Part shown: positions 2-17,520 of the stretch, piece by piece
Layout: each line of letters starts with the position of its first letter
Numbering within the stretch: the stretch's first letter is position 1
Origin: Candidatus Latescibacterota bacterium
GTDB taxonomy: Bacteria; Latescibacterota; UBA2968; UBA8231
DNA: 64,000 nt
Assembly (NCBI GenBank): GCA_965200315.1
Contig: OZ241362.1
Coordinates: forward strand, 4,032,001-4,096,000
Direction of reading: 5' to 3'
Notes under the pieces: model-generated
The model's database searches: none
The model's input: only the letters and a program-made list of their open reading frames with translations
What the model was told of the DNA's origin: nothing
Position numbers and translations under genes: made by a program

Positions 2-952
2 GAACTGACCGGCACCCAGTTTACCAGCATCATCCGCGCCGAAATTTTCATGGTGCCCATCGTGCTCTTCACCAGTTTTCTCTACGGCTCCTATATCTGG
101 AAACTGGCACCAATCCCCTCGGCCTCCTACCCCTATGCCCAGCTAATCTGGCGGCTGCGCGCCTACCAGCAATGCCTCTTTATCACCGGCACCATGCGCA
201 GCGAACTGGCCATAGACCAAGATCGGGCGGGGTGGACCCCTGCTAACCTGATTGAAAACGAGTGGTGGTACTGGCGGGTGCGGCTGGTGGATCAGGAGTG
301 GCTGGACTCCAACGGCAAGCGCGGCCAAATCGGGCCGTGGATGCCGACCCAAGTTTTCTACTCGTACTTCGAGCAAGGGACACCCGATATCGTTGTCGAG
401 CGCTATCTGCGCGACGCGCAGCTAGCCGAAGAGGAAATTGTCGAGGGCCTGCCAGCGATTGCGCCACTGGAGCCGGCTATGGACGCCGTCATCCGCGCTC
501 CCCGTCCGACCCTCGAAGTGCAAGTCGAGCGGGCCGTGCCAGCGGGATGGTCTTTCTACTTTGAAGTTGATACCGATCCGCTCTTTACCAGCTCTTGGAT
601 CCAGCGCTCCACCGATGAGCCTTGGCTCTTTAAGGCCCTAAAAGAAGAGGTCATCGCCTTTGGGGCCATCTTCGGGCTGGTGAGCTTCATTCTGCTGTCC
701 ATTCTCGGACTGCCGATCCTGCTGATCTTTGGCTTCGTGCGCTCGCTGACGACCCTGCCGCATTTCGTGGTGACTGAGATCATCGGTGCGCTCTTAGCTC
801 GCTACTACTTTTGGAACAAGTACGGGCGGCAGGAATGGCGGCAGTTTGCCCCTATTCTGGCAGTGGGCTTTTCCTGCGGCATGGCACTGATGGGTATGGC
901 GTCGGTGGGGATCGCCCTGATCCAGAAATCGGTCTCGGTGCTGATCTTCTAG
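2..952 (+). CDS. OPT-like/peptide-transporter-type multi-pass membrane protein, 5'-truncated by window edge
   Basis: Frame open from nt 2 (ELTGTQFTSIIRAEIFMVP...). Hydrophobic helices plus motifs IWKLAPIPS.SYPYAQ and LAVGFSCGMALMG. Soluble insert at about 194-619. Confidence 0.6.
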   Translation, partial: ELTGTQFTSIIRAEIFMVPIVLFTSFLYGSYIWKLAPIPSASYPYAQLIWRLRAYQQCLFITGTMRSELAIDQDRAGWTPANLIENEWWYWRVRLVDQEWLDSNGKRGQIGPWMPTQVFYSYFEQGTPDIVVERYLRDAQLAEEEIVEGLPAIAPLEPAMDAVIRAPRPTLEVQVERAVPAGWSFYFEVDTDPLFTSSWIQRSTDEPWLFKALKEEVIAFGAIFGLVSFILLSILGLPILLIFGFVRSLTTLPHFVVTEIIGALLARYYFWNKYGRQEWRQFAPILAVGFSCGMALMGMASVGIALIQKSVSVLIF

Positions 953-953
953 C

Positions 954-1949
954 ATGAGCGACTGGGTAGATTTCGCTTGGCAAGGGCTGCGGCTGTCCGT
1001 GCCCGACGACTGGAACCTCGGCCGAGTTGACGGGGACTTTGAAAAGGGCTATGCCCGCCTCGACGACGCCGAAATCGTGCGCGCCGAAATCGAATGGCGG
1101 CGTCTCAAAGGCCGCGGCGAGGCCCTGCGCCTGACCGAACTGGTAGATCGCTACTTGGCCAACCTGCAAAAGAAGGCCCAAAAGGTCGATGCCCCCTTTG
1201 AGGTTCAGCGCCGCGCTCGATTCCTCAAAAACAAGAAATTCCTCGAAGGCCGCGAATACGAGGTCTTCATCTGGGAGGCTGACTTCCGCGCGTACAACCT
1301 AGCGCTCGCCTTGGAGTCCGGCCGGGTTGTGCTCCTGAGAGTGCTGGCCAAGCTAGACGAGTTTTTGCCCGAGCAAGCCGAGGCTGTGTTTAGCTCGCTC
1401 GTCGATCAAGAAGCCAAGGCCGCTCATTTGTGGAGCGTGTACGGCTTGCGGTTTTTTGCGCCCAGCGACCTTAAGCTACAAAGCCATTCCCTCAAGTCGG
1501 GCCATATTGAGCTAGAGTTCTCTCTCGGCAAACAGGTTCTAAAAGTGCATCGATTGAGCATGGCCCGGATCATGCTCAAAGACGCGCACATCCAAGACTG
1601 GTATCCGGTCTTTTTTAAGAAACAACTGCGCGACTTCGTGGTGGACATTATTCCAGAAGCCGTGCAGGAACACGAGGGCATTCGCATCGAAGGGCGGCCG
1701 CGCAGCCGCTGGCGTCAGCTACTGAGGCCCCTACCCTTTATGAATCCGAGGCCGCGCCTATACATGCGGGGGCGCGTCTGGCGCGATACCAGCATCGACA
1801 AAATCGCCATCATCGAGCACCTCTACCGCAAGAAAGACGCAAAAGACGACGAGCTAGTCGCCAAGGTAGTAGATGGGCATTTTATCAAAAAACAAGGGAC
1901 CCAAGCTGAGCCGGGCCGCCATGCTGGCGTCGCGGCCAACGCGCAATGA
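954..1949 (+). CDS. hypothetical protein with two internally repeated domains (PsbP/Mog1-like starts)
   Basis: 331-aa ORF starting 1 nt after the upstream stop. Repeated motif WQGLRLSVPDDW / VYGLRFFAPSDL. Confidence 0.7.
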   Translation: MSDWVDFAWQGLRLSVPDDWNLGRVDGDFEKGYARLDDAEIVRAEIEWRRLKGRGEALRLTELVDRYLANLQKKAQKVDAPFEVQRRARFLKNKKFLEGREYEVFIWEADFRAYNLALALESGRVVLLRVLAKLDEFLPEQAEAVFSSLVDQEAKAAHLWSVYGLRFFAPSDLKLQSHSLKSGHIELEFSLGKQVLKVHRLSMARIMLKDAHIQDWYPVFFKKQLRDFVVDIIPEAVQEHEGIRIEGRPRSRWRQLLRPLPFMNPRPRLYMRGRVWRDTSIDKIAIIEHLYRKKDAKDDELVAKVVDGHFIKKQGTQAEPGRHAGVAANAQ

Positions 1950-2322
1950 GTCCCTGCGCTGGGAAGACAACGACAACGGCGAGACCCAAGTATTCATAAC
2001 GCGCCAGAACACCTGGAAGGTGCGGCTGTTGTCCAAGTTTTTCTATATCCCCAAGCAGCGCAAAATCACCCTCGACGAAGTCGGCAGCGAGGTCTGGCGG
2101 ATGTGCAACGGCCGCAACTCGGTTGGCGATATGATCGCAGAGCTCAGCGACAAGTACCAGCTCAACCGCAAAGAGGCCGAGGTCTCCCTGCTCCAGTATT
2201 TGAAGACCCTTGGGCAAAAGCGCTTTATCGGCTTCGTACTAGAGGGCGACAAGAGGCCGCCTGATCGCGGCGCGGCCAGCGGAAAAAAATGGCAAAACAA
2301 ATCGAGCGGGGCGAGCAATTAG
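1873..2322 (+). CDS. PqqD family (RiPP recognition element-like) protein
   Basis: ITLDEVGSEVWRMCNGRNSVGDMIAELSDKY...SLLQYLKTLGQKRFI matches the PqqD three-strand/three-helix pattern. Confidence 0.8.
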   Translation: MGILSKNKGPKLSRAAMLASRPTRNESLRWEDNDNGETQVFITRQNTWKVRLLSKFFYIPKQRKITLDEVGSEVWRMCNGRNSVGDMIAELSDKYQLNRKEAEVSLLQYLKTLGQKRFIGFVLEGDKRPPDRGAASGKKWQNKSSGASN

Positions 2323-2918: not shown

Positions 2919-5057
2919 ATGAACCAATCGTATAAAGGCTTTATAGATCGCCTGACCTACCACAACCCGGAAAACGGCTATACCATTGCGCGCTTAGTCG
3001 TTGAGGGCCAGCGGGAGCGGATCGCAATCGTGGGGGCGATTGCCTCCATCCAAGAGGGCGAGAGCGTCGAAGTCGAAGGCGTGTGGACCCAGCATCCCAA
3101 ATACGGCAAACAGCTCAAGGTGGAGCGCTATAAGGCCGTTTATCCCTCGACTCTCGAAGGCATGCAAAAGTACCTCGGGTCTGGTTTGATCAAAGGCGTC
3201 GGGCCGAAGTCGGCCAAGCGCATCGTCGATCACTTTGGCGCGGAAACGCTCGACATCATCGACGCAGATGCCCGCCGGCTAGAGGAAGTGCCCAAGCTGG
3301 GCAAAAAGCGGGTCGAGCTGATTGCCGCGGCTTGGGACGAGCAGCGGCAAATCAAGGACGTGATGGTCTTTTTGCAGTCGCACGGGATTACCACCGGCTA
3401 CGCGGTAAAAATTTTTAAGACCTACGGCCAAGAGGCCATCCAAAAGGTCCGCAGCGATCCCTATCGCCTAGAGCGCGATGTGGATGGGATCGGCTTCCGC
3501 ATCGCCGACCGCATTGCCCAGTGCTTGGGCCTCGGCCGCGACGCCCCCGAGCGCGTACAGGCCGGCATCCGCTACCTGCTCTCCGAAGCGGCCGACGAAG
3601 GCCACGTGTACCTGCCGGCCGTCGAAATGATGGAGCGGGCCATCGAAATTTTGGACATCAACGCCGAACTGCTGCCGCCGGCATTGGAGGCCCTGCGCAC
3701 TGACGACGGCGTAGTCACCGAAGACATGCACTACTATCTGCCGCCGCTCCACCGCGCCGAAGTGGGTGCCGCATCGTCGCTAAAGCGGCTTTTGCGAGCA
3801 CCAGCCGAAGAATTGGCCGTGCCCTCAGAAGCTGAAGACGAGCTGGAATTGGCTCCGGCGCAAAGACAGGCTGTGGAACTGGTCGCCACGAGCAAGGTGC
3901 TGGTGCTAACCGGCGGGCCGGGCACCGGCAAGACTACGGTCACGCGGCGCATTTTGCACCTGTTGGAGGAAGGCGGCCTCAAGGTCGCGCTGTGCTCGCC
4001 TACGGGCCGCGCTGCCAAGCGGTTGAGCGAGGCCAGCGGGCGCGAGGCCAAGACCATTCATCGGCTGCTCGGATTTCAGCCGGGCGAGCGGCAGTTCAAA
4101 AAGGGCTACGACGACCGCCTGGAGCTCGACGCGCTGATCGTCGATGAGGCTTCCATGATCGACGTGGTGCTGTTGAACGCACTCCTGCGCGCCCTGCCCG
4201 ACCGCGCTCGGCTGATATTAGTCGGCGACATCGACCAGTTGCCTTCGGTGGGGCCGGGCAACGTGCTCCGCGACATCATCGACTCCGCAGAAGTGCCGGT
4301 GGTGCGCCTGACGCAAATTTTTCGCCAAGCTCAAAAAAGCCACATCATCCGCAACGCGCACCGCATCAACAGCGGCGAAATGCCCGTTATCGACAACCAT
4401 GCGGCAGCGGATTTCTACTTCGTCCGCGAGGGCGACCCGAAAAAAGTGGTCGAGCTGGTGGAGGAGTTGTGCGCCACGCGGCTGCCCAGCTATCGGGGGT
4501 GGGATCGGCGCAGCGACATCCAAGTGCTGTCGCCCATGTACCGCGGCGAGACTGGCGCACTCAACCTCAACCAGCGGCTGCAACAGTGCCTCAATCCGCA
4601 CGGCCAAGCGCACCGCCATCGCGGGGCCGAGTTCCGGGTGGGTGACAAGGTCATGCAGGTCAAGAACAACTACGACAAGGGCGTTTTTAACGGCGACATC
4701 GGCACGGTCGAGCGGCTCGATGCCGAAAAGCAGGTACTCTACGTGCGCTTTGACTACACCCTCGAATACGATCAAGTCGATCTCGACCAGCTTACCCTCG
4801 CCTACGCCATCAGCATCCACCGCTCTCAGGGGTCGGAATTTCCCGTGGTGGTGCTGCCGCTGACGACTCAGCACTACATTATGCTACAGCGCAACCTGCT
4901 CTACACGGCCATTACCCGCGCCAAGCAAATGATCGTCATCGTCGGCACCCCCAAGGCCCTCAAGCTAGCCATTGCCAACGACAAGGTCGCCCAGCGTTAC
5001 ACCACGCTCAAGGAGTGGCTGCGCGGCGAGGTCGGCACGGTGCTGGAAGCGGGTTGA
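2919..5057 (+). CDS. recD2: ATP-dependent RecD-like DNA helicase RecD2
   Basis: N-terminal OB/HhH region (YLGSGLIKGVGP), Walker A GGPGTGKT, DEASM, GDIDQLPSVGPG, HRSQGSEF, LYTAITRA. Confidence 0.95.
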   Translation: MNQSYKGFIDRLTYHNPENGYTIARLVVEGQRERIAIVGAIASIQEGESVEVEGVWTQHPKYGKQLKVERYKAVYPSTLEGMQKYLGSGLIKGVGPKSAKRIVDHFGAETLDIIDADARRLEEVPKLGKKRVELIAAAWDEQRQIKDVMVFLQSHGITTGYAVKIFKTYGQEAIQKVRSDPYRLERDVDGIGFRIADRIAQCLGLGRDAPERVQAGIRYLLSEAADEGHVYLPAVEMMERAIEILDINAELLPPALEALRTDDGVVTEDMHYYLPPLHRAEVGAASSLKRLLRAPAEELAVPSEAEDELELAPAQRQAVELVATSKVLVLTGGPGTGKTTVTRRILHLLEEGGLKVALCSPTGRAAKRLSEASGREAKTIHRLLGFQPGERQFKKGYDDRLELDALIVDEASMIDVVLLNALLRALPDRARLILVGDIDQLPSVGPGNVLRDIIDSAEVPVVRLTQIFRQAQKSHIIRNAHRINSGEMPVIDNHAAADFYFVREGDPKKVVELVEELCATRLPSYRGWDRRSDIQVLSPMYRGETGALNLNQRLQQCLNPHGQAHRHRGAEFRVGDKVMQVKNNYDKGVFNGDIGTVERLDAEKQVLYVRFDYTLEYDQVDLDQLTLAYAISIHRSQGSEFPVVVLPLTTQHYIMLQRNLLYTAITRAKQMIVIVGTPKALKLAIANDKVAQRYTTLKEWLRGEVGTVLEAG

Positions 5058-5194
5058 GTTGAGAGTCAGAATTGTTCGCTGGTGAACTTATTGACTGACG
5101 TTGCGCTGCTTGTGCCGCGAGCGTGTCCAGTGATTCGCCGGGGCCACTTCCTACACCCAAATGCACAACATGACTTATTGAAGGGGTATATTCG

Positions 5195-5974
5195 ATGAAT
5201 GAGTACCATGCTGCCAATAGGAAACGCTGGAATCTAGCCGCGCCTCAATACGCGGAAAAGCACGACCAAAATGGCACTTGGCGGATTGCCCATCAGCGAC
5301 CAGAAGTCGTCTTCCGCGAGCGAGAATTGGAGCTGATGGGCACGGTCCGCTGCCGAGACGTTTGCGTTCTCGGCAGCGGCGATAACATCGCCGTATTCGC
5401 CTTGGCGGGAATGGGTGCCCATGTAACCTCGGTTGACATTTCTAGCGAGCAACTAAAGGTGGCGCGGCAACGATCAACGGAACTCGGATTGACCGTTCAG
5501 TACGTCGAAGCAGATGTTGTGGACCTTAGCGGTCTAGAGAGTACAGCATTCGATCTCGTTTACACCGGCGGTCACGTCGGCGTCTGGGTCTCCGATCTCC
5601 GAGCGTACTACCGAGAGGCCATTCGCATTCTTCGCTCAGGAGGCCTGCTCCTGATCAACGAATATCATCCCTTCAGGAGGATCTGGAAGGACCAAGAAAC
5701 GGCGTTAGAGGTTGGGTTCAGCTACTTTGACAATGGACCACATAAGTACGGCCCTTCAGCAGAGCTGCTAGAACGGTCATCTGGAAATGTAGTGCAGTAC
5801 GAATTTCACTGGACGGTTTCCCAGTATCTCAATGCCGTTATCGAGCAAGGAGTAGAGCTGGTCAAGTTTGAAGAAATGGGCGACGACGCCGAAGGCTGGG
5901 AGTACGCTCCCCTTGAAGGATTGCCCCAAATGCTGGTGATCGCTGGCCGGAAGATGCCCGCTTCGGCTTCTTAA
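5195..5974 (+). CDS. class I SAM-dependent methyltransferase
   Basis: VCVLGSGD, VTSVDIS, FDLVYTG, ILRSGGLL..EYHP. GC appears lower than in flanking genes. Confidence 0.85.
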   Translation: MNEYHAANRKRWNLAAPQYAEKHDQNGTWRIAHQRPEVVFRERELELMGTVRCRDVCVLGSGDNIAVFALAGMGAHVTSVDISSEQLKVARQRSTELGLTVQYVEADVVDLSGLESTAFDLVYTGGHVGVWVSDLRAYYREAIRILRSGGLLLINEYHPFRRIWKDQETALEVGFSYFDNGPHKYGPSAELLERSSGNVVQYEFHWTVSQYLNAVIEQGVELVKFEEMGDDAEGWEYAPLEGLPQMLVIAGRKMPASAS

Positions 5975-6090
5975 AAGTTCGTTCGGAGATGGCCTTAACC
6001 GCGCGCCTGATCCAGCGTCAAAAAATGGCGTGTAGAGCACGTCTTCTTTTGCCAGTAGGCGCGTCGGCAGCCACTTTGCGCGGAAGGTAC

Positions 6091-7560
6091 TCACGCGACG
6101 GAAACCTTGTCGTCCTCAACCGTTACCGCGCCGTCCTGCACCAGCTTTTTCAGCACAGATCCTACCTTGCGATTCGCTTTGGCCGTTAGGTGGCGAAAGC
6201 CCATCAGCGACAGGGCCGCAGAAATGGCCTCTTCTTCCGCCAAGCTAAAGGCCGCACGGATTACCGCGAGCAAGGCCGCGCCAATTTCCTCGTCGGGCAC
6301 CAACTCGATTTTCTTGGCGGCGGGTGGCAGGTCCGAGCGGTCGCGCACCCTCACCGGCTCGTCGCTATCGGCAAACAGGAAGTCGCCTTTGAGGTGGAGG
6401 AAGCCGTTCCTTTGACCGTATGCAGCGGCCCGTTTTATATGCTCTAGCATTCGCGAACCCACGCGGGCAAAACCGGCCGAGTCAGCGAGCCGCCGCGCCG
6501 CCTCTGTCAGGTGAACCGGGCCTTCAATGCCGATCACCTCGCGCATGGCTTGGGCGACATCCTCTAGGGCCAACTCGTGGAGCTCGTCGAATTCGTCAAT
6601 GCCCAAATCGCCCGTGGCCAACACATAAGCGGCGGCCTGCAAGTTGTTTTCCGTCGGCTCACCGCGCTCGATGCGCTTGGGTTGCGCTGCGGAGCGGGGC
6701 TGTTCGGCGTGTGTTTCTTTCGCCTCGTAAAAGCGCAGTGCTTGCTCAATGGAATCCTTGAGGCGGACGCTTTCTCCATGGGTATTGCGGAACCAGTCAG
6801 TACTCCAAATGCGATGGAAGCGCCAACCCAAGCCCTCCAGCACACTCTGGCGCAAACGGTCGCGGTCGCGGGCCGTTGCCGAGCTGTGGTAAGTCGCGCC
6901 ATCGCACTCTACCCAGCGCGGCTGACGATCCACGCCATCGGCCACTTCTTTTAAGTACCTATCAATGTCTAGCTCTTCCCCGAACTCCGGCAACGCTATC
7001 TCGAACTCGCTTTTTAGTTTGTTGGCAAGCGTCAGATTCGCACCGAGAAAGGCCTGCGTGTACGCCACCTTGTAACGCGCTCTCGCACTGCCGCGCTCCA
7101 AGGCGACCGGCACTAATACGAGCGGTGCTTTGCGGGGCGTGGAGGAGTTTTCGTCTTCATACCAAATCAAGAAGCCCAAGGCCAGATACAAAAGATCGAC
7201 GCCCTGCTCTTGGTAGTAGCCCTCGGCCTCTGCGCTGATCTTGATCAGTCTTTTATCCAGCGCGTCCTCGGCGAGTTTGGTTTGCAGGCGGTTATCGGTA
7301 TGGCGGCGGTCTCCGTATTGGTCTTCCAAAATTTTGGGCAGTGCCTGCGGGTCGCTTTCGTCCTCCAGCGACGCGGGCAGCGGGATAAAAGCCATGGGCT
7401 TTTGCTCGGCGACCAATATCTGAAATACCTCCCGCGCCCGCTCGTCGATCACTTCGAGCGTTTTCGCGCCGGAACGAAAATTGAGCAGCGTGTTGCCACG
7501 CAGGCCCATATCCAACAATTCCGCCCGGCTGACTTCCAGTTTCTCTGCTAAAAGTTGCAT
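6091..7560 (-). pseudogene. DUF4011-helicase-Vsr-like nuclease-DUF3320 (Hhe-type defence) gene with in-frame deletion of the helicase core
   Basis: DUF4011 N-terminus (LLDMGLRGNTLLNF...LYLALGFL.W...APLVLVPV) joined directly at DRQPRW|VECDGATYH to the nuclease tail (RDRDRLRQ.VLEGLGW.FHRIWSTDW) and a wHTH-like C-terminus. Only 489 aa, with no Walker motifs. Confidence 0.75.
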
Positions 7561-7871: not shown

Positions 7872-8600
7872 CTACAAGGTGTCGCGCAACAGCCAGCGCA
7901 CGGCGTTTTGCTGCAACTTCTCGTAGGCCGGGTTCCACAGCGCGGGGATGGTGTGTCCCGGTGATAGATAGCACACGCGGCCCGCGCCGTACTCGTAAGC
8001 CCAAGCCGCCTCGCACGTGGTGCCCAAGTCCTGCCAAGTATGCCCATCGTCGTTGACGCTGACGGCCAAGACCTCGGCTGGGTCCTTGTCGTAGTGCATG
8101 AAGTGCTGCTCGTCCTCGACGACAAAGTCCTCCACGCCGTGCATTATGGGGTGATCTGGGCGCGTGATGTGAACTCGGTAGGGACGCACCGGTGGATGCC
8201 CTTGCGTAGTGGCCCCTAGCACGTGGCGGAAGTCGCTACTGCCCGGGGCGATGTACGTGGAATTGTGGTAGAAAAGAGCCGCTCCACCCGTCTCCACAAA
8301 GCTCCGCACGGCGCGGCCTTGGGACTCGGTAATCCACTGTACGGGACGGGATTCCTCAGCCTCGACGGGCGGCTCGCTGACAGACGCAGCCTCTAGGCCA
8401 TAGCCATTGGGCCAGATCATGCCGTCGCGGAAGACGATCAGCAGCCGGTAGCTCGACAGATGTCGGGCGTTGAGTAGGGTGAGCTCGTCGGTAAAGTCAA
8501 CGGACAATCCTATGCCTTGGACCAAGGTGCGGCCCAAAGCCGTGCGGATGTAATCAGACGTGTGATAGCGGTCGCCCACTAGGGCAAAGGCCGTAGCCAT
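7872..8600 (-). CDS. ThuA-like (class I GATase-like) domain protein
   Basis: FVETGG, HPP..PY.V....PDHPIM.GV.DF...DEQH, YGAGRVCYLSPGH, NAVRWL. Confidence 0.8.
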   Translation of the reverse strand: MATAFALVGDRYHTSDYIRTALGRTLVQGIGLSVDFTDELTLLNARHLSSYRLLIVFRDGMIWPNGYGLEAASVSEPPVEAEESRPVQWITESQGRAVRSFVETGGAALFYHNSTYIAPGSSDFRHVLGATTQGHPPVRPYRVHITRPDHPIMHGVEDFVVEDEQHFMHYDKDPAEVLAVSVNDDGHTWQDLGTTCEAAWAYEYGAGRVCYLSPGHTIPALWNPAYEKLQQNAVRWLLRDTL

Positions 8601-8614
8601 GAATCGCCTCCTCC

Positions 8615-10102
8615 TTAGAACCGTTCCAACTCCGGGAACTTTTCCTCGCCTCTATGCACGTGCATGGCCCCACCCTCGGCGCACCGCCGCAAGGTGGGAA
8701 ACACCTTGCCCGGATTCAACACCTGCTGAGGGTCAAACTCGGCCTTGACTCTCTCCTGGGCGTCCAAATCCGCGTCCTTGAACATGCACGGCATTAAATC
8801 CCGCTTCTCAATGCCAACCCCGTGCTCCCCACTCAACACGCCCCCCACCTCGACGCAGAGCTTCAGGATCTCGGCTCCTAGCGACTCGGCCTTCGCCAGA
8901 TCGCCCTCGACATTGCTGTCGTACAGCACGAGTGGGTGCAGGTTGCCATCGCCCGCGTGGAAGACGTTGGCCACCCGCAGGCCATACGCGGCCGATAGCT
9001 CGCCGATTCTCTGTAGCACCTGCGGCAGCGCACCCCGCGGGATGGTCCCGTCCATGCAGTAGTAGTCGGGGCTAATCCGACCCATGGCCGGAAAGGCCGC
9101 TTTGCGGCCGGCCCACAGCTTTTGCCGCTCGGCCTCGGTTGTGGCGCGGGAAAGCGCGGTCGCGCCGGTCTGCCGCAAGAGCGATTCCAGCGTGCGGCTT
9201 TGGCACTCGACCTCGCTTTGCGGCCCGTCCAATTCGACCAGCAAGAGCGCCGCGACCCCGAGTGGATAGCCCGCGCCGACAAAACCCTCAACCGCTTCCA
9301 CAGATAGCTGATCCATGATTTCCATGCCAGCTGGCACCATGCCTGCGGCGATGATCTCGGCCACGGCCTGGCCGGCCGCGGCGACCGAATCGTACACGGC
9401 CATCACGGCTTGCGCCACTTCTGGCTTGGGCAAGATCCGCAGCGTGGCCTCGGTGGTAATGGCCAACAGCCCTTCCGAACCCGTCAGCAATCCGAGCAAG
9501 TCGTAGCCCGCTTGGTCCATACCCTTGCCGCCGACCCGCACGACCTCGCCATCGGCCAACACCACCTCCAAGCCGAGGAGGTTGTTGGTCGTCGTGCCGT
9601 ACTTGAGGCAGTGTACCCCGCCTGAATTTTCGGCTATATTGCCGCCGATCGAGCAGGCTATTTGGCTCGAAGGATCGGGCGCATAGTAGAAGCCGCTTCG
9701 CTCCACCGCTTCGGTCACGCCTCGGTTGGTCACGCCCGGCTGCACGGTCACCGTGCGGTTTTGCAAGTCGATGTCGAGGATCGCTCGCATCCGCGCCGTG
9801 CTCAACACCACCCCATCTTCCCTCGGCAGGGCACCCCCCGAAAGCCCGGTGCCGGCACCCCAAGGGACGATGGGAATGTCGAGTTGGGAGCACGACCGGA
9901 GTACGGCCGCGACCTGCTCGGTGTTATCTGGCAAAGCGACCAGCATGGGCCGCTGGCGATACGCCGACAGGCCGTCGCATTCATAGGCGACTACGTCCTC
10001 GCGACGGTGAATGATCTGATCGGCGCGCAAGTGTTCGCGCAGGCGGCCAATGAGGGCTTCGCGGCGCTTGAAGCGGGTGGGATCGGGGGGGGGAAGTTGC
10101 AT
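8615..10102 (-). CDS. glcD: glycolate oxidase subunit GlcD-type FAD-linked oxidase
   Basis: GAGTGLSGGA, YAPDPSSQIACSIGGNIAENSGGVHCLKYG, NVFHAGDGNLHP, GEHGVG.EK. Confidence 0.9.
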   Translation of the reverse strand: MQLPPPDPTRFKRREALIGRLREHLRADQIIHRREDVVAYECDGLSAYRQRPMLVALPDNTEQVAAVLRSCSQLDIPIVPWGAGTGLSGGALPREDGVVLSTARMRAILDIDLQNRTVTVQPGVTNRGVTEAVERSGFYYAPDPSSQIACSIGGNIAENSGGVHCLKYGTTTNNLLGLEVVLADGEVVRVGGKGMDQAGYDLLGLLTGSEGLLAITTEATLRILPKPEVAQAVMAVYDSVAAAGQAVAEIIAAGMVPAGMEIMDQLSVEAVEGFVGAGYPLGVAALLLVELDGPQSEVECQSRTLESLLRQTGATALSRATTEAERQKLWAGRKAAFPAMGRISPDYYCMDGTIPRGALPQVLQRIGELSAAYGLRVANVFHAGDGNLHPLVLYDSNVEGDLAKAESLGAEILKLCVEVGGVLSGEHGVGIEKRDLMPCMFKDADLDAQERVKAEFDPQQVLNPGKVFPTLRRCAEGGAMHVHRGEEKFPELERF

Positions 10103-14228: not shown

Positions 14229-16035
14229 CTATCTCTTATTCAACCGCGTGAACAGCGCATCTACGATTGGGGTGACTCGGTCGAAGTCGTCTATTTCTGC
14301 TAAAACTGCGAACGTAATTTCTTGACGCAGTTCGCGCCGTTCCGTTTGGCTCTCCTGCCAGTTCGGATGGGCAGCGAAAGCCGCCGCGACCTTCTTGCCG
14401 ATAGCTTTGGCATTACCGACCTTGGCATCGCGCAGGCTCGCATAGACAAAATAGGTCCTGTCGTCGAAACCTAACGCCGCCTGCTCGCTTTTCTGTTGCT
14501 CGTTTCTCTGCTGCTCAACCACTAGTGCGTTTAGAGTCTCTTGGGTGTTGAGCTGACCTTCCTCATAGCGTTCTTGGATGGCTCTTGCCCGTTCGGCCAA
14601 GTCCAAGAGTAGCAGAGCGTCGCTACTATCTTCGGCTGCCTGCTCCATGCTCTTGACCAAGTTGATGATCTTCGTCCCCTCGCCGCCCGACTTCTCGGCG
14701 ATTTGCTCCATCGTTTTTGCGTCGATCTTTACAGTTTCGAAGACCGGCTGGATGTAGCTCGTTCCAACGTGCTTCTGCACCGATTCGTTGGTCTTTTTCT
14801 GCAAGGCGCGATCTACATACACCCCTTGCTGATATGCTTTGCGGACTGTGTCGTAGATGGCTGAGAGCGTGGCATAGTTATCGATGAACGGGCCCAAGAA
14901 GGCATCCGGCGAGAGGATCTCATAGAGTATTTCGATCTCTTTATATTCCTTAAAAAATTCCTCGCGTCGTTCTTTGTCATGGAAGTGCTCAATTAGGGCG
15001 TTGACGTCGCGGTCATTGAATCTGTCGCTGATCTTTGTTCAACTCTTCAACGTCCGTCACCCCTTCTGCCTCGGGCAATGCCCAAAACTCTTTTTCCATC
15101 AACTCTGCATTTACCTGCATCTCGTTAGGGGCCAAGTTGTAGAACAGCGGCAGAGTCGTCTGATCGGCAATACTCTCGGCGATGGAGTATTTGTGCAGAT
15201 ACCCCTTGTCATCCTCACAGCCAAAGGTTCTGAACGTACCCTCGCCATACGTCGTTTTGTCGATTGGCGTCCCAGTAAAGCCGATGTAGGTGGCATTGGG
15301 CAGGCCGGCCATCAGAAAGCTGCCTAAGTCGCCGCCAGTGGTGCGGTGCGCCTCATCAATCAGCACGAACACGTTGGACCGCTCGTTGACCTTGGCTGGC
15401 ATGTCGCGGAATTTGTGGATGGTGGTAACAATGATGCCCCGATAGTCGTTATTGAGCAGATTGACCAGTGTGCTGATTCGGTTGGCATGTTTTACATTGC
15501 TCAGCCCCAGTGACGCCAAATTCTTGCACATCTGGTCTTCTAGTTCATTGCGGTCCGCCATCAGCAAGATGGAGGGCTTTTCGCTTGCAGGTGCCTTGAA
15601 CAGCCGTTCTGCGGCCTTGATCATAGTGAAGGTTTTACCGCTGCCCTGAGTATGCCAGACCAAGCCACGTGTGCGTTCGGGATCCAAGCAACGGTTGACC
15701 ACTCGCTCCACGGCTCCTGTTTGGTGTTGGGCCAAGATGTACTTGTTGAGTTCTTCGTCTTTCTCAGCGAAGACGATAAAGTGCTGGAGCAGGTCAAGGA
15801 TATGCCGACGGTCACAGAAGCTCTTGACTTTGGCCTCCAGTAGTCCAGCCTTTTCCTGTTTCCAGTTGAAGATGTTGCGGCGCACAGTGTTCCACGTCAC
15901 ACCGTAGGAGAAGCCGATGGCGTCTGTTGCGGCGAAAATCATCTCTGGCACGAACAGTTCGGGGGTTTCGTTGTGATAGCGGCGGATCTGATCTACACCG
16001 AGGGCGATGGCCTCATTCTTAGTGGAGTTCTTGCA
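14229..16035 (-). pseudogene. hsdR: type I restriction subunit HsdR remnant (N-terminus and helicase domain 2 deleted)
   Basis: CKN...GVDQIRRYH, WHTQGSGKT, LIDEAHR, GFTGTPI. Jumps out of frame at about 15032 into the C-terminal region (YEILSPDAFL). Confidence 0.85.
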
Positions 16036-16049
16036 TTTCGGCCACAACT

Positions 16050-16618
16050 TTATGAATCCAAAGTCCGCTAGGGGCAACATCACTGACACGAAGTACTTCC
16101 CAACTCTCCGGCACAGGTCCAATTTCCGTCTGTTTTTGCGGTTCGCCTCGTGTACCTTCGGTAAAGAGCTTGTGCATGAGAGCTTTCTTCAATTCGGCTG
16201 TGGTCTGAATAATCCGCTCTTGGGCTCCAATTGCCCGCTGTACCGTCGAAAGAACGTGCGTGATCTTCTTTTGTTCGGAGAGTGGAGGCACGGCAATCGG
16301 CAACTCGGCCAGCTTGGAGCGGGAAAGATTTGGAATCGTCGTGACGTTGCCGCGGCCGAAGTAGAGCTTCCCAACGTCAAAGGCATACCAGAACCAGTAC
16401 ACCACAAATTGGGGATCGACACGACCATTCAGCGACCGAAGCCGGTGAAGATGGTTTTGGTAGTAACAACTCCCGGCCTCGCCTCGCCAGAGGGCCGTGC
16501 GGCCGATGGAGCCACCTTCGCAGACAAGGAGGTCATCTGGTAGCAGCGCGAGTCGAGATTCCTCCATTTCAGTGAAGTTCATCTGATCGAGTTTTACAAG
16601 ATCGAGCCTGTTCCAGAC
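16050..16618 (-). pseudogene. hsdS: type I specificity subunit HsdS internal fragment
   Basis: GGSIGR..LW, YQNHLHRLR, IAVPPLSEQKKI..L, ELKKALMHKLFT.G, TEIGPVPESWEV. Confidence 0.85.
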
Positions 16619-17520
16619 CTCCTTTTTGCCAGCGCAGAGAATGAGGCCAAGCGGCGATTCTTCGCCAGCCTGCTGCTCGTGCTTGGCAAGCCAGCGGAGG
16701 TAAAGTTCCATCTGACCTTTGTACTCGGCCTTGAAATCGCCGAGCTTGAGATCTATGGCGATGAGGCGGCGCAGACGGCGATGGTAAAACAGAAGGTCGA
16801 GGTAAAAGTCGTCGAAATCAATCTGAATGCGCTTCTGACGGCCGAGGAAGGCAAAGCCATCGCCGAGTTCGAGTAGAAAGGTCTCGATTTCGCGCAAGAT
16901 GGCATCCTCAAGATCGCGTTCAAGATAGCGATCATTGAGGCCAAGAAAATCGAGCACATAAGGGTCTTTGAAAACAAGGGTAGGCGTGAACCGGTCGTCC
17001 TCTCGCAATTGAGTCAGTTCAGCACGAGCGACTTCTTCAGGCTTCCGGGAAATAGCGGTGCGCTCGTAGAGCATGGAGCCAATCTTGTCGCGCAAGGTGC
17101 GAACGCTCCAGCGTTCGACGCGGCACATCTCGGCGTAAAACTCACGCTGGAGGGGTTCCTTGAGAGGAATCAGAGCCAGAATGTGTGTCCAGCTTAATTG
17201 TCGTATCAGCGATACGACAATCTCAGGATCAGGAAAAACCTCGGCAAACTGCATCATGCGTCGTAGATTTTTTCCGAGAAGCTGGTCCCGTAGGCGAGCG
17301 ATAATTGTCTCCCCAGCGTAGAGACAATCTTTTTTCCGTAGTCGGCTCGTTGTCCCTGAAGAATCTCGCTCTGAATCCGCTTGCCAATTCTCCAATAGAG
17401 GCTCGTCATCCCCGCATTGACGGTCTGAGCAACTCCCGCACGGGTCTGCTCAATCATGCTCTGCACATCGGCAAGCAAGCCGTCCGAAGTGTCGATAATG
17501 TCGAGATATTCGTCGCTCAT
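16619..17520 (-). pseudogene. YhcG/DUF1016 PD-(D/E)XK nuclease, frameshifted and 3'-truncated
   Basis: LYWRIGKRI, LSWTH, KDPYVLDFL, DLLFYHRRLRRLIAIDLK.G.FK.EYKGQMELYL. One base is missing in the A-run near 17270. Fused in frame to the hsdS fragment after LCAGKK. Confidence 0.85.

Follow-up and report, generated by a model that had tools for sequence, protein, structure and literature searches.

PqqD-like proteins serve as beacons for clusters that make peptide natural products. The discrete RiPP recognition elements (RREs; RiPP, a peptide made by ribosomes and modified after translation), which include PqqD and the lasso-peptide B1 proteins such as TbiB1, are given a length of at most 110 aa in the available part of one account (PMC12710340). 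In the portions available of that paper and of the RRE-Finder study (PMC12710340, PMC7470986), discrete PqqD-like proteins are treated solely in RiPP or pyrroloquinoline quinone (PQQ) settings, and many of them occur without the expected enzymes; about half of the ~8,000 proteins that score best with the discrete lasso-RRE model of RRE-Finder are without lasso enzymes (PMC7470986, same portion). We describe here a locus at the start of a 64,000-nucleotide stretch of the genome of a Candidatus Latescibacterota bacterium (the window; G000:C1:4032001-4096000 on one 5.36-Mb contig), where the genes for an OPT-fold membrane protein, a 331-aa protein and a 149-aa PqqD/RRE-family protein follow one another. 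In our reading these three genes close a conserved operon that encodes an undescribed envelope transport machine, which combines a type VII ATP-binding cassette (ABC) transporter with OPT-fold permeases.

The 149-aa protein is like the discrete RREs in being small, stand-alone and a member of PF05402. It is unlike them in having no precursor gene, radical S-adenosylmethionine (radical-SAM) enzyme, leader peptidase or cyclase nearby, and in that it always goes with a tandem PsbP-like protein, in linkage with ABC and OPT transporter genes; it is also longer, owing to a basic N-terminal extension and a lineage-specific tail. The closest described counterparts of the motor are the type VII ABC systems MacB, LolCDE and FtsEX, with which the machine shares a giant subunit carrying FtsX and MacB periplasmic-core domains, a small FtsX protein and a dedicated ATPase. 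In mechanotransmission systems of this kind the permease bears a large extracytoplasmic domain, as it does here. The machine departs from MacB, LolCDE and FtsEX in that a remodelled M28-like ectodomain is fused to the giant subunit and that it is encoded together with OPT-fold permeases and the PqqD/PsbP-like pair. The 807-aa OPT-fold protein shares its overall membrane fold with barley Yellow Stripe 1 (YS1; 7wsr), from which it differs in its low identity (12%), a β-rich insertion and the position of its gene inside an ABC operon. The 331-aa protein has two tandem domains, as do Tli4/TplEi and PA3488, whereas PsbP, Mog1, DcrB and EagT6/SciW (DUF1795) are single-domain; it has no detectable sequence relationship to the Tli4/PsbP-type proteins, and its wider family has a CxxC/WxC/CH set of its own. 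Among the literature matches listed, partly at title and abstract level, no published account of the machine was found (DUF6785, PqqD with FtsX/MacB, or a combination of FtsX, M28 and OPT), and the papers co-mentioning PqqD and MacB were Pseudomonas genome reports.

The principal features are listed below; a window position equals the L003 position minus 16000.

2-952, + strand: 3′ 316 codons of the gene for the OPT-fold membrane protein (open reading frame, ORF, with an open 5′ end)
G000:C1:4030529-4032952 (L003 14529-16952), + strand: the same OPT-fold gene entire, 807 aa (ORF)
954-1949, + strand: predicted tandem PsbP/Mog1/DUF1795-like protein, 331 aa (ORF, ATG start)
1873-2322, + strand: PqqD/RRE-family protein, 149 aa (ORF, ATG start)
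L003 9722-14515, same strand as the operon: giant M28-like/MacB/FtsX protein, 1597 aa (Pfam scan)
L003 7783-9741, same strand as the operon: DUF6785+DUF6784 membrane protein, 652 aa (Pfam scan)
2308-2336, + strand: intrinsic-terminator-like hairpin (consensus scan; stem-loop 2308-2330, then a T6 run)

The original prediction, made from the letters of the window, described three tightly coupled genes forming the tail of a transport system whose 5′ part lay beyond the window, possibly with a peptidase-like or FtsX-like gene upstream. The ORFs lie exactly where it had placed them, with a single nucleotide (position 953) between the OPT-fold and 331-aa genes and a 77-nt overlap (1873-1949) between the 331-aa and PqqD genes, so that there is no room among the three for a precursor-peptide gene. 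The OPT-fold gene starts 1,472 bases ahead of the window, the gene anticipated upstream is present as the 1597-aa M28-like and MacB/FtsX gene, and the three genes do end a larger transport operon. A divergent RelA/SpoT gene forms the boundary of the upstream gene block.

Membership of the 149-aa protein in the PqqD family, as predicted, is upheld by the Pfam model PF05402, which matches residues 65-119 (E 2.7e-11; 44.1 bits against a cut-off of 23.4), and by a profile of 25 orthologues that matches the solved RRE/PqqD structures TbiB1 (E 3e-6), 9x90, 5sxy and 3g2b. These matches predict a winged-helix PqqD fold with a β3/α3 peptide groove. In the alignments, the third, groove-forming helix (KEAE-x-S-L-L-x-Y-L) is nearly invariant across phyla, and a basic N-terminal extension (residues ~8-25) with the pattern P-(K/R)-(L/I)-(S/T)-R...P-x-R-N is common to the orthologues of all lineages, while the C-terminal ASGK(A/K)W tail is limited to Latescibacterota. 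The long start codon choice is favoured because similarity to orthologues runs from residue 1-12 onward, also in lineages where the two genes do not overlap. None of the NCBIfam PqqD subfamilies, among them PQQ, lasso and GeoRSP, is matched above its cut-off (29.9 bits for the PQQ-pathway model TIGR03859, cut-off 46; 30.1 bits for the lasso model NF033536, cut-off 80), and a search of the window's genome found no second PqqD.

A conventional role in peptide or cofactor maturation was considered and rejected in both of its forms. A PQQ-pathway PqqD is contradicted by the absence of pqqA-E in the ~34 kb around the locus, by the score for TIGR03859 and by the PqqE family search, which returned just generic radical-SAM matches of 60 bits (cut-off 381) at a distance of over 0.5 Mb; a genome search for PqqC, made without a positive control, gave no match. 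A biosynthetic RRE of the lasso B1, sactipeptide or similar kind would sit beside a precursor gene and a maturase, and there is neither space for the former nor any instance of the latter here or in annotated distant loci. The Pfam-scanned ORFs over ~16 kb upstream and ~18 kb downstream contain no radical-SAM enzyme, cyclase, YcaO or PQQ gene, as the original prediction had noted for the neighbourhood in general. It is still conceivable that the protein is a true RRE of a cryptic RiPP system, whose precursor and maturase genes lie elsewhere and for which the ABC and OPT proteins act as exporter or immunity; family membership fits such a system, and ABC transporters are common in RiPP clusters according to the available part of PMC7470986. 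We consider this highly improbable, given that no precursor-sized gap or maturase occurs in the ~34 kb here or in the annotated distant loci, that 132 of the 151 genomes sampled from the phylum carry the pair in one copy, and that the PqqE matches are generic and remote. Natural-product clusters are expected to spread patchily, and the near-universal, single-copy presence of the pair is unlike such a spread; together with the lack of precursor room and of RiPP enzymes nearby, this argues against a RiPP cluster. It is very likely that the 331-aa and PqqD proteins belong functionally to the transport machine and not to a RiPP pathway.

The gene order is kept well beyond Latescibacterota, in line with the predicted conservation of a transporter-hypothetical-PqqD arrangement across phyla. 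Sixteen distant metagenome loci were examined (L123 was dropped, being the same contig as L071), in which the homologues of the 331-aa protein are 23-33% identical to that of the window. The OPT-fold gene lies directly upstream of the homologue in 13 of 14 evaluable loci and PqqD downstream in 12 of 13, with L121 as the exception to both; PqqD is followed by a small FtsX-only protein of ~220 aa in all 11 evaluable loci, and this in turn by an ABC ATPase in 7 of 7. The giant M28-like/FtsX gene is present in each of the six loci that reach far enough upstream (L113, L117, L118, L122, L124 and L125). This order points to an ancestral set of (DUF6785), giant FtsX, OPT, tandem PsbP-like, PqqD, small FtsX and ABC ATPase genes, and neither a radical-SAM enzyme nor any other RiPP enzyme accompanies it in the annotated distant loci. 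A natural fusion of 452 aa (P0264) combines the 331-aa family at residues 13-307 with a PqqD domain at 378-438, and its C-terminal half aligns to residues 12-138 of the window's PqqD (E 5e-22), N-terminal extension included. No fused forms of 581-2000 aa were found, which is weak evidence. In L125, a thioredoxin/AhpC-like gene of 497 aa (4519-6012) stands between the giant FtsX and OPT genes, and an ORF of 325 aa without assignment (8007-8984) between the OPT and 331-aa genes.

Within Latescibacterota the pair is close to universal. The 331-aa gene occurs in 58 of 61 related genomes; in a sample drawn over the phylum, 132 of 151 genomes have it, always as a single copy (split over two contigs in G034 and G112), and PqqD is the next gene on the same strand in all 80 loci from species genomes. 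Of ten loci examined, four have the two genes spaced at −77 or −71 nt and five at +19 to +123 nt, while in one they are 814 nt apart with an ORF between them; the overlaps, and with them the translational coupling of the pair, recur in several families. In genome G056 (L018:3185-4000, − strand), a 271-aa ORF stands between the two genes. The OPT-fold gene is directly upstream in 66 of 79 evaluable loci, a count for which L074 is truncated and L070 contains a spacer of 2 kb, and this includes the divergent L096 and L101 (38% identity); by coordinates it also adjoins in G063, G065 and G072, which represent three further families. In the four genomes with a separated pair that were checked, giant FtsX and OPT genes form a block of their own elsewhere (4/4), accompanied by DUF6785 in three; the fourth, G042, has two tandem giant genes instead. 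There (L027, G042:C2:730500-750400), the two giant M28-like/FtsX genes stand upstream of a single OPT-fold gene. A small FtsX or ATPase gene follows PqqD in no Latescibacterota locus.

Absences also go together. Family f10 lacks the 331-aa gene in all 13 genomes, and in five of these that are 93-97% complete the OPT-fold family was not found either (0/5, against 5/5 with the same profile in genomes of five other families), while PqqD gives just generic matches of ~26 bits in three of the five. In three related genomes where no 331-aa gene was found (81, 91 and 82% complete), the search found no PqqD (0/3) but did find OPT-fold paralogues (3/3). This co-absence, which amounts to one lineage-level loss and three incomplete genomes, is supportive but not strong.

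Several observations weigh against assigning the pair to the machine. The loss in f10 is a single lineage event, and in the other three genomes, at 81-91% completeness, the pair may simply be unassembled. The P0264 fusion is known from one 4-kb contig and may be an assembly or frameshift artefact; where the two genes overlap, a single indel could create one. In the window's genome the small FtsX and ATPase genes lie 480 kb from the operon, and the window's 331-aa protein has lost the Cys/His set of its family, so that its role may have drifted. Every PqqD or RRE characterized in the available part of PMC7470986 has a free precursor peptide as its ligand, a point in favour of cargo or precursor binding. 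Moreover, the pair stands apart from transporter genes, with variable neighbours, in 13 of the 79 Latescibacterota loci, and a member of the 331-aa family that is 30% identical (L121:8983-9945) occurs without PqqD or transporter genes. The last two points would suit an unrelated housekeeping pair that has some other cytoplasmic task and travels beside transporter genes in some lineages, the L121 member lying in a cell-wall context. We regard such a pair as improbable in view of the identical gene order in other lineages at 23-33% identity, the position of the pair between the OPT gene and the FtsX/ATPase genes in the distant loci, and the joint absence of the pair and the OPT-fold family in f10. 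The L121 member is flanked by a RodA/FtsW gene and a TPR protein, with a LON substrate-binding-domain gene upstream, and this neighbourhood suggests that a second, cell-wall-linked context for the 331-aa family may exist.

The description of the membrane protein as OPT-like stands as regards fold and is weak as regards sequence. The Pfam OPT model (PF03169) reaches 21.7 bits against a cut-off of 25.8, for the last 80 residues of the C-terminal fragment only, and gives no match for the full-length 807-aa protein or four orthologues. The AlphaFold model (pLDDT 76, pTM 0.73), which contains a β-rich insertion of ~120 residues (559-681), has as its sole significant fold matches in the PDB the structures of barley YS1 (7wsr/7wst; E 4e-9, probability 1.00, TM-score 0.65), which we take to be a member of the OPT superfamily; the next match has E 0.026. 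With its sequence score below threshold, the protein is filed as OPT-fold and not as a member of Pfam OPT. A sequence-profile search of the PDB with the family returned nothing meaningful. Atlas look-ups gave weak OPT support (PF03169 in 15% of one neighbouring cluster, score 0.75) and unnamed clusters labelled Gemmatimonadota, Armatimonadota and Poribacteria; both serve as leads only. The orthologues share an invariant G-F right before the first helix, inside a conserved acidic N-terminal segment. Pairwise comparison of the 807-aa protein with the 652-aa DUF6785/DUF6784 protein found no similarity, and we accordingly make no claim of OPT-likeness for the latter.

The system is ATP-driven and of the MacB/FtsX type, which could not be seen from the window. 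In its 1597-aa subunit, the FtsX domain (residues 1320-1431, E 3e-15) and MacB periplasmic core (1018-1204, E 6e-7) both score over the Pfam cut-offs and are preceded by an M28-like domain at 248-333. Aligned to YwaD and the Vibrio aminopeptidase (AAP), and on our assumption as to which residues are the M28 metal ligands and catalytic residues, this domain has AYYD in place of AHYD, Glu or a gap in place of the bridging Asp, and HH in place of EE, the last two ligands lying outside the aligned part. As the alignable metal and catalytic motifs are altered, the domain is probably not a canonical aminopeptidase. Nicalin, which is inactive, is among its matches. Orthologues of the ATPase (67% identity, E 2e-108; next best 59%) and of the small FtsX (53% identity) are adjacent in the window's genome at 4,512,261-4,513,723, ~480 kb away and among unrelated neighbours, and it is this distant ATPase that presumably powers the permease of the operon.

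Copy numbers divide the parts of the machine into two classes. The window's genome encodes one 331-aa protein and one PqqD, five OPT-fold loci and seven giant FtsX frames (1487-2128 aa); the pair is thus single-copy like the ATPase and small FtsX, and the 5-7 paralogues are those of the cargo-facing giant FtsX and OPT genes. An OPT-fold paralogue lies at G000:C1:374638-377793, and others at four further places; one of the five is in a 1080-aa open frame with a larger insertion. This division bears on the explanation first offered for the locus, in which PqqD acts as a cargo chaperone: it would bind a transported peptide where the OPT-fold permease faces the cytoplasm, either following import or ahead of export, and the scaffold would pass the peptide on. 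In favour of such a role, known RREs bind free peptides as an added β-strand, according to the available part of PMC7470986. Further points in favour are a permease whose fold is that of an oligopeptide/metal-chelate importer and the peptidase-like ectodomain on the giant subunit, and the synteny is equally compatible with a chaperone and with the explanation that we prefer. However, the pair is single-copy where the cargo-facing parts have 5-7 paralogues, the near-invariance of the groove-forming helix from phylum to phylum points to one constant ligand, and the operon contains no peptide-processing enzyme. To our knowledge, characterized OPT transporters need no cytoplasmic chaperone. Because the pair is single-copy and the groove helix nearly invariant, a constant ligand borne by the machine fits somewhat better than a free cargo peptide, and we regard cargo chaperoning as the less likely reading, though still a serious rival.

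The 331-aa protein was predicted to have tandem domains, and its AlphaFold model (pLDDT 87.3, pTM 0.82) bears this out, showing two similar sheet-plus-helix domains of PsbP/Mog1 type with a disordered C-terminus of 19 residues. Foldseek against the PDB returned the two-domain immunity proteins TplEi/Tli4 of the type VI secretion system (T6SS) over the whole length (E 1e-5), as well as PA3488 and many PsbP chains aligned over one domain (TM-score 0.5-0.68 on the target). The 18 matches at E ≤ 1e-3 are nearly all to Tli4/TplEi, PsbP and PA3488; those to EagT6, SciW, Mog1 and DcrB are weaker (6e-3 to 2e-2 for Eag/SciW). On this model we take it for a tandem PsbP/Mog1/DUF1795-like scaffold, whose fold is one that serves to bind proteins or peptides. 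Neither Pfam nor NCBIfam has a family that matches it, and a sequence-profile search of the PDB with its family gave nothing meaningful. It is read as cytoplasmic because its N-terminus, MSDWVDFAWQG, has no hydrophobic signal segment. A T6SS immunity protein of the Tli4 type was rejected on the same ground and because the neighbours are transporter genes; the flanking ORF scans found no T6SS or effector genes near it.

A profile search of 1.84 billion representatives (at 50% identity) found 1524 family members with E ≤ 1e-3, of which 796 also pass 1e-10 and 209 pass 1e-30; most are complete proteins of ~300 aa. No Pfam match occurred in 40 diverse members scanned, and the taxon labels among 20 clusters looked up were only 'bacterium' and Armatimonadota. 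The wider family carries the motifs CxxC, WxC and C-terminal C-H/Q, which likely form a structural metal site. By a simple pattern count, 95 of the 133 full-length representatives have all three motifs and 4 have none; among the Latescibacterota rows the respective figures are 22/40 and 11/40, the latter including the window's protein. The Latescibacterota members have an invariant Arg/Pro-rich loop (residues 247-268); this GRPRSRWRQLLRPLPF-NPRPR loop is specific to them, and model confidence is lower there than elsewhere in the protein.

The fold matches raise the alternative of an assembly chaperone, in which the 331-aa protein shields hydrophobic or amphipathic stretches of the giant subunits until these enter the membrane, as Eag and SciW do for T6SS effectors, PqqD holds a targeting peptide, and the pair stays outside the mature machine. 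EagT6 and SciW appear among the matches in complex with transmembrane domains, a single pair could serve many paralogous large membrane proteins, and the pair can be encoded away from the machine. The Eag/SciW matches are nevertheless weaker than those to Tli4 and PsbP, and the 1-nt coupling to the OPT-fold gene suggests stoichiometric co-production, which makes an assembly chaperone quite unlikely. A prediction of the complex of the 331-aa protein with PqqD gave a score of 0.01 and is weighed neither way.

The operon ends at the PqqD stop codon, where the sequence predicts a conserved terminator. The hairpin has a 9-bp stem with 7 GC pairs, carries the TAG stop of PqqD in its loop and has a fold z-score of −2.4. 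In a survey that covered loci up to L091, a hairpin with a T-run at or just after the PqqD stop was present in 28 of 32 evaluable closer loci (L030-L062), with stems that differ yet remain complementary, and in only 7 of 29 more distant ones (L063-L091). Contigs from RNA libraries (four runs of one study) span both gene junctions, and two of the runs have a long contig that stops at 2311, which agrees with the terminator as a weak hint; such contigs cannot prove a transcript or a transcript end, and the libraries may contain DNA. The little or no contig cover after 2311 in runs X3 and X4 was not taken as evidence of silence.

Taken together, we tentatively favour, as the best explanation overall, that the 331-aa and PqqD proteins form a fixed two-protein cytoplasmic module that acts as an adaptor or regulator of the type VII ABC plus OPT machine. 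An adaptor role is favoured by the single-copy pattern that the pair shares with the motor parts, by the nearly invariant groove helix, and by genes that are coupled and in one case fused. The machine would comprise a type VII (MacB/FtsX-type) ABC motor, the giant permease of which bears the remodelled M28-like ectodomain, together with one or two permeases of OPT fold. The two cytoplasmic proteins may bind each other and the machine. It is possible, if somewhat short of probable, that a constant peptide segment of the machine is held in the RRE groove: PqqD would then clamp a short conserved cytoplasmic stretch, for which the invariant N-terminal segment of the OPT-fold subunit is a conjectural candidate and a tail of an FtsX subunit another, and the tandem scaffold would link this contact with the ATPase/FtsX core. 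A single motor set could thereby be shared among the genome's several paralogous giant-FtsX/OPT modules. We further entertain, as a rather doubtful extension, that the pair plugs the shared ATPase/small-FtsX 'power pack' onto paralogous giant-FtsX/OPT 'heads' through a conserved cytoplasmic peptide tag.

Further features of the flanks are the following.

L003 6839-7228, same strand as the operon: NusG_II-domain protein (Pfam scan)
L003 7162-7752, same strand as the operon: Hpre_diP_synt_I-family membrane protein (Pfam scan)
2289-2909: membrane protein of 206 aa with weak PAP2-like matches (ORF; shares 34 nt with the end of the PqqD gene)

The NusG_II and Hpre_diP_synt_I genes precede the operon likewise in other members of the same family (L020, L024 and L025). 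The 206-aa ORF begins within the PqqD gene and crosses the terminator hairpin, and its true start may for that reason be further downstream. A gene for a RecD2-type helicase comes after it, and both genes stand behind PqqD throughout the window's family, in several genera after an extra stretch of 1.6 kb. Farther along the window, a DUF4011/MTES_1575 nuclease-like/DUF3320 protein is encoded at 6091-7560 (− strand), and at 15013-17395 (− strand) a SWI2/SNF2-ResIII ATPase with, next to it, a fusion of a DUF1016-YhcG nuclease and a piece of a type I specificity domain; these look like restriction or defence remnants.

The locus offers part of the enzyme-less PqqD population a home, as a transporter accessory module, and as PqqD has such a place here, genome miners should not count loci of this kind as RiPP clusters. 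It also defines a large protein family that has no Pfam model, and supplies further, cytoplasmic components for an ABC plus OPT machine of wide distribution, which is near-universal among Latescibacterota and occurs at least also in Armatimonadota-labelled genomes. Should the power-pack arrangement be true, the RRE fold would have been recruited from natural-product synthesis as a docking clamp for a transporter, and the machine would be a modular ABC importer with swappable heads, widespread in uncultured phyla. The cargo of this machine would bear on the feeding of these uncultured heterotrophs.

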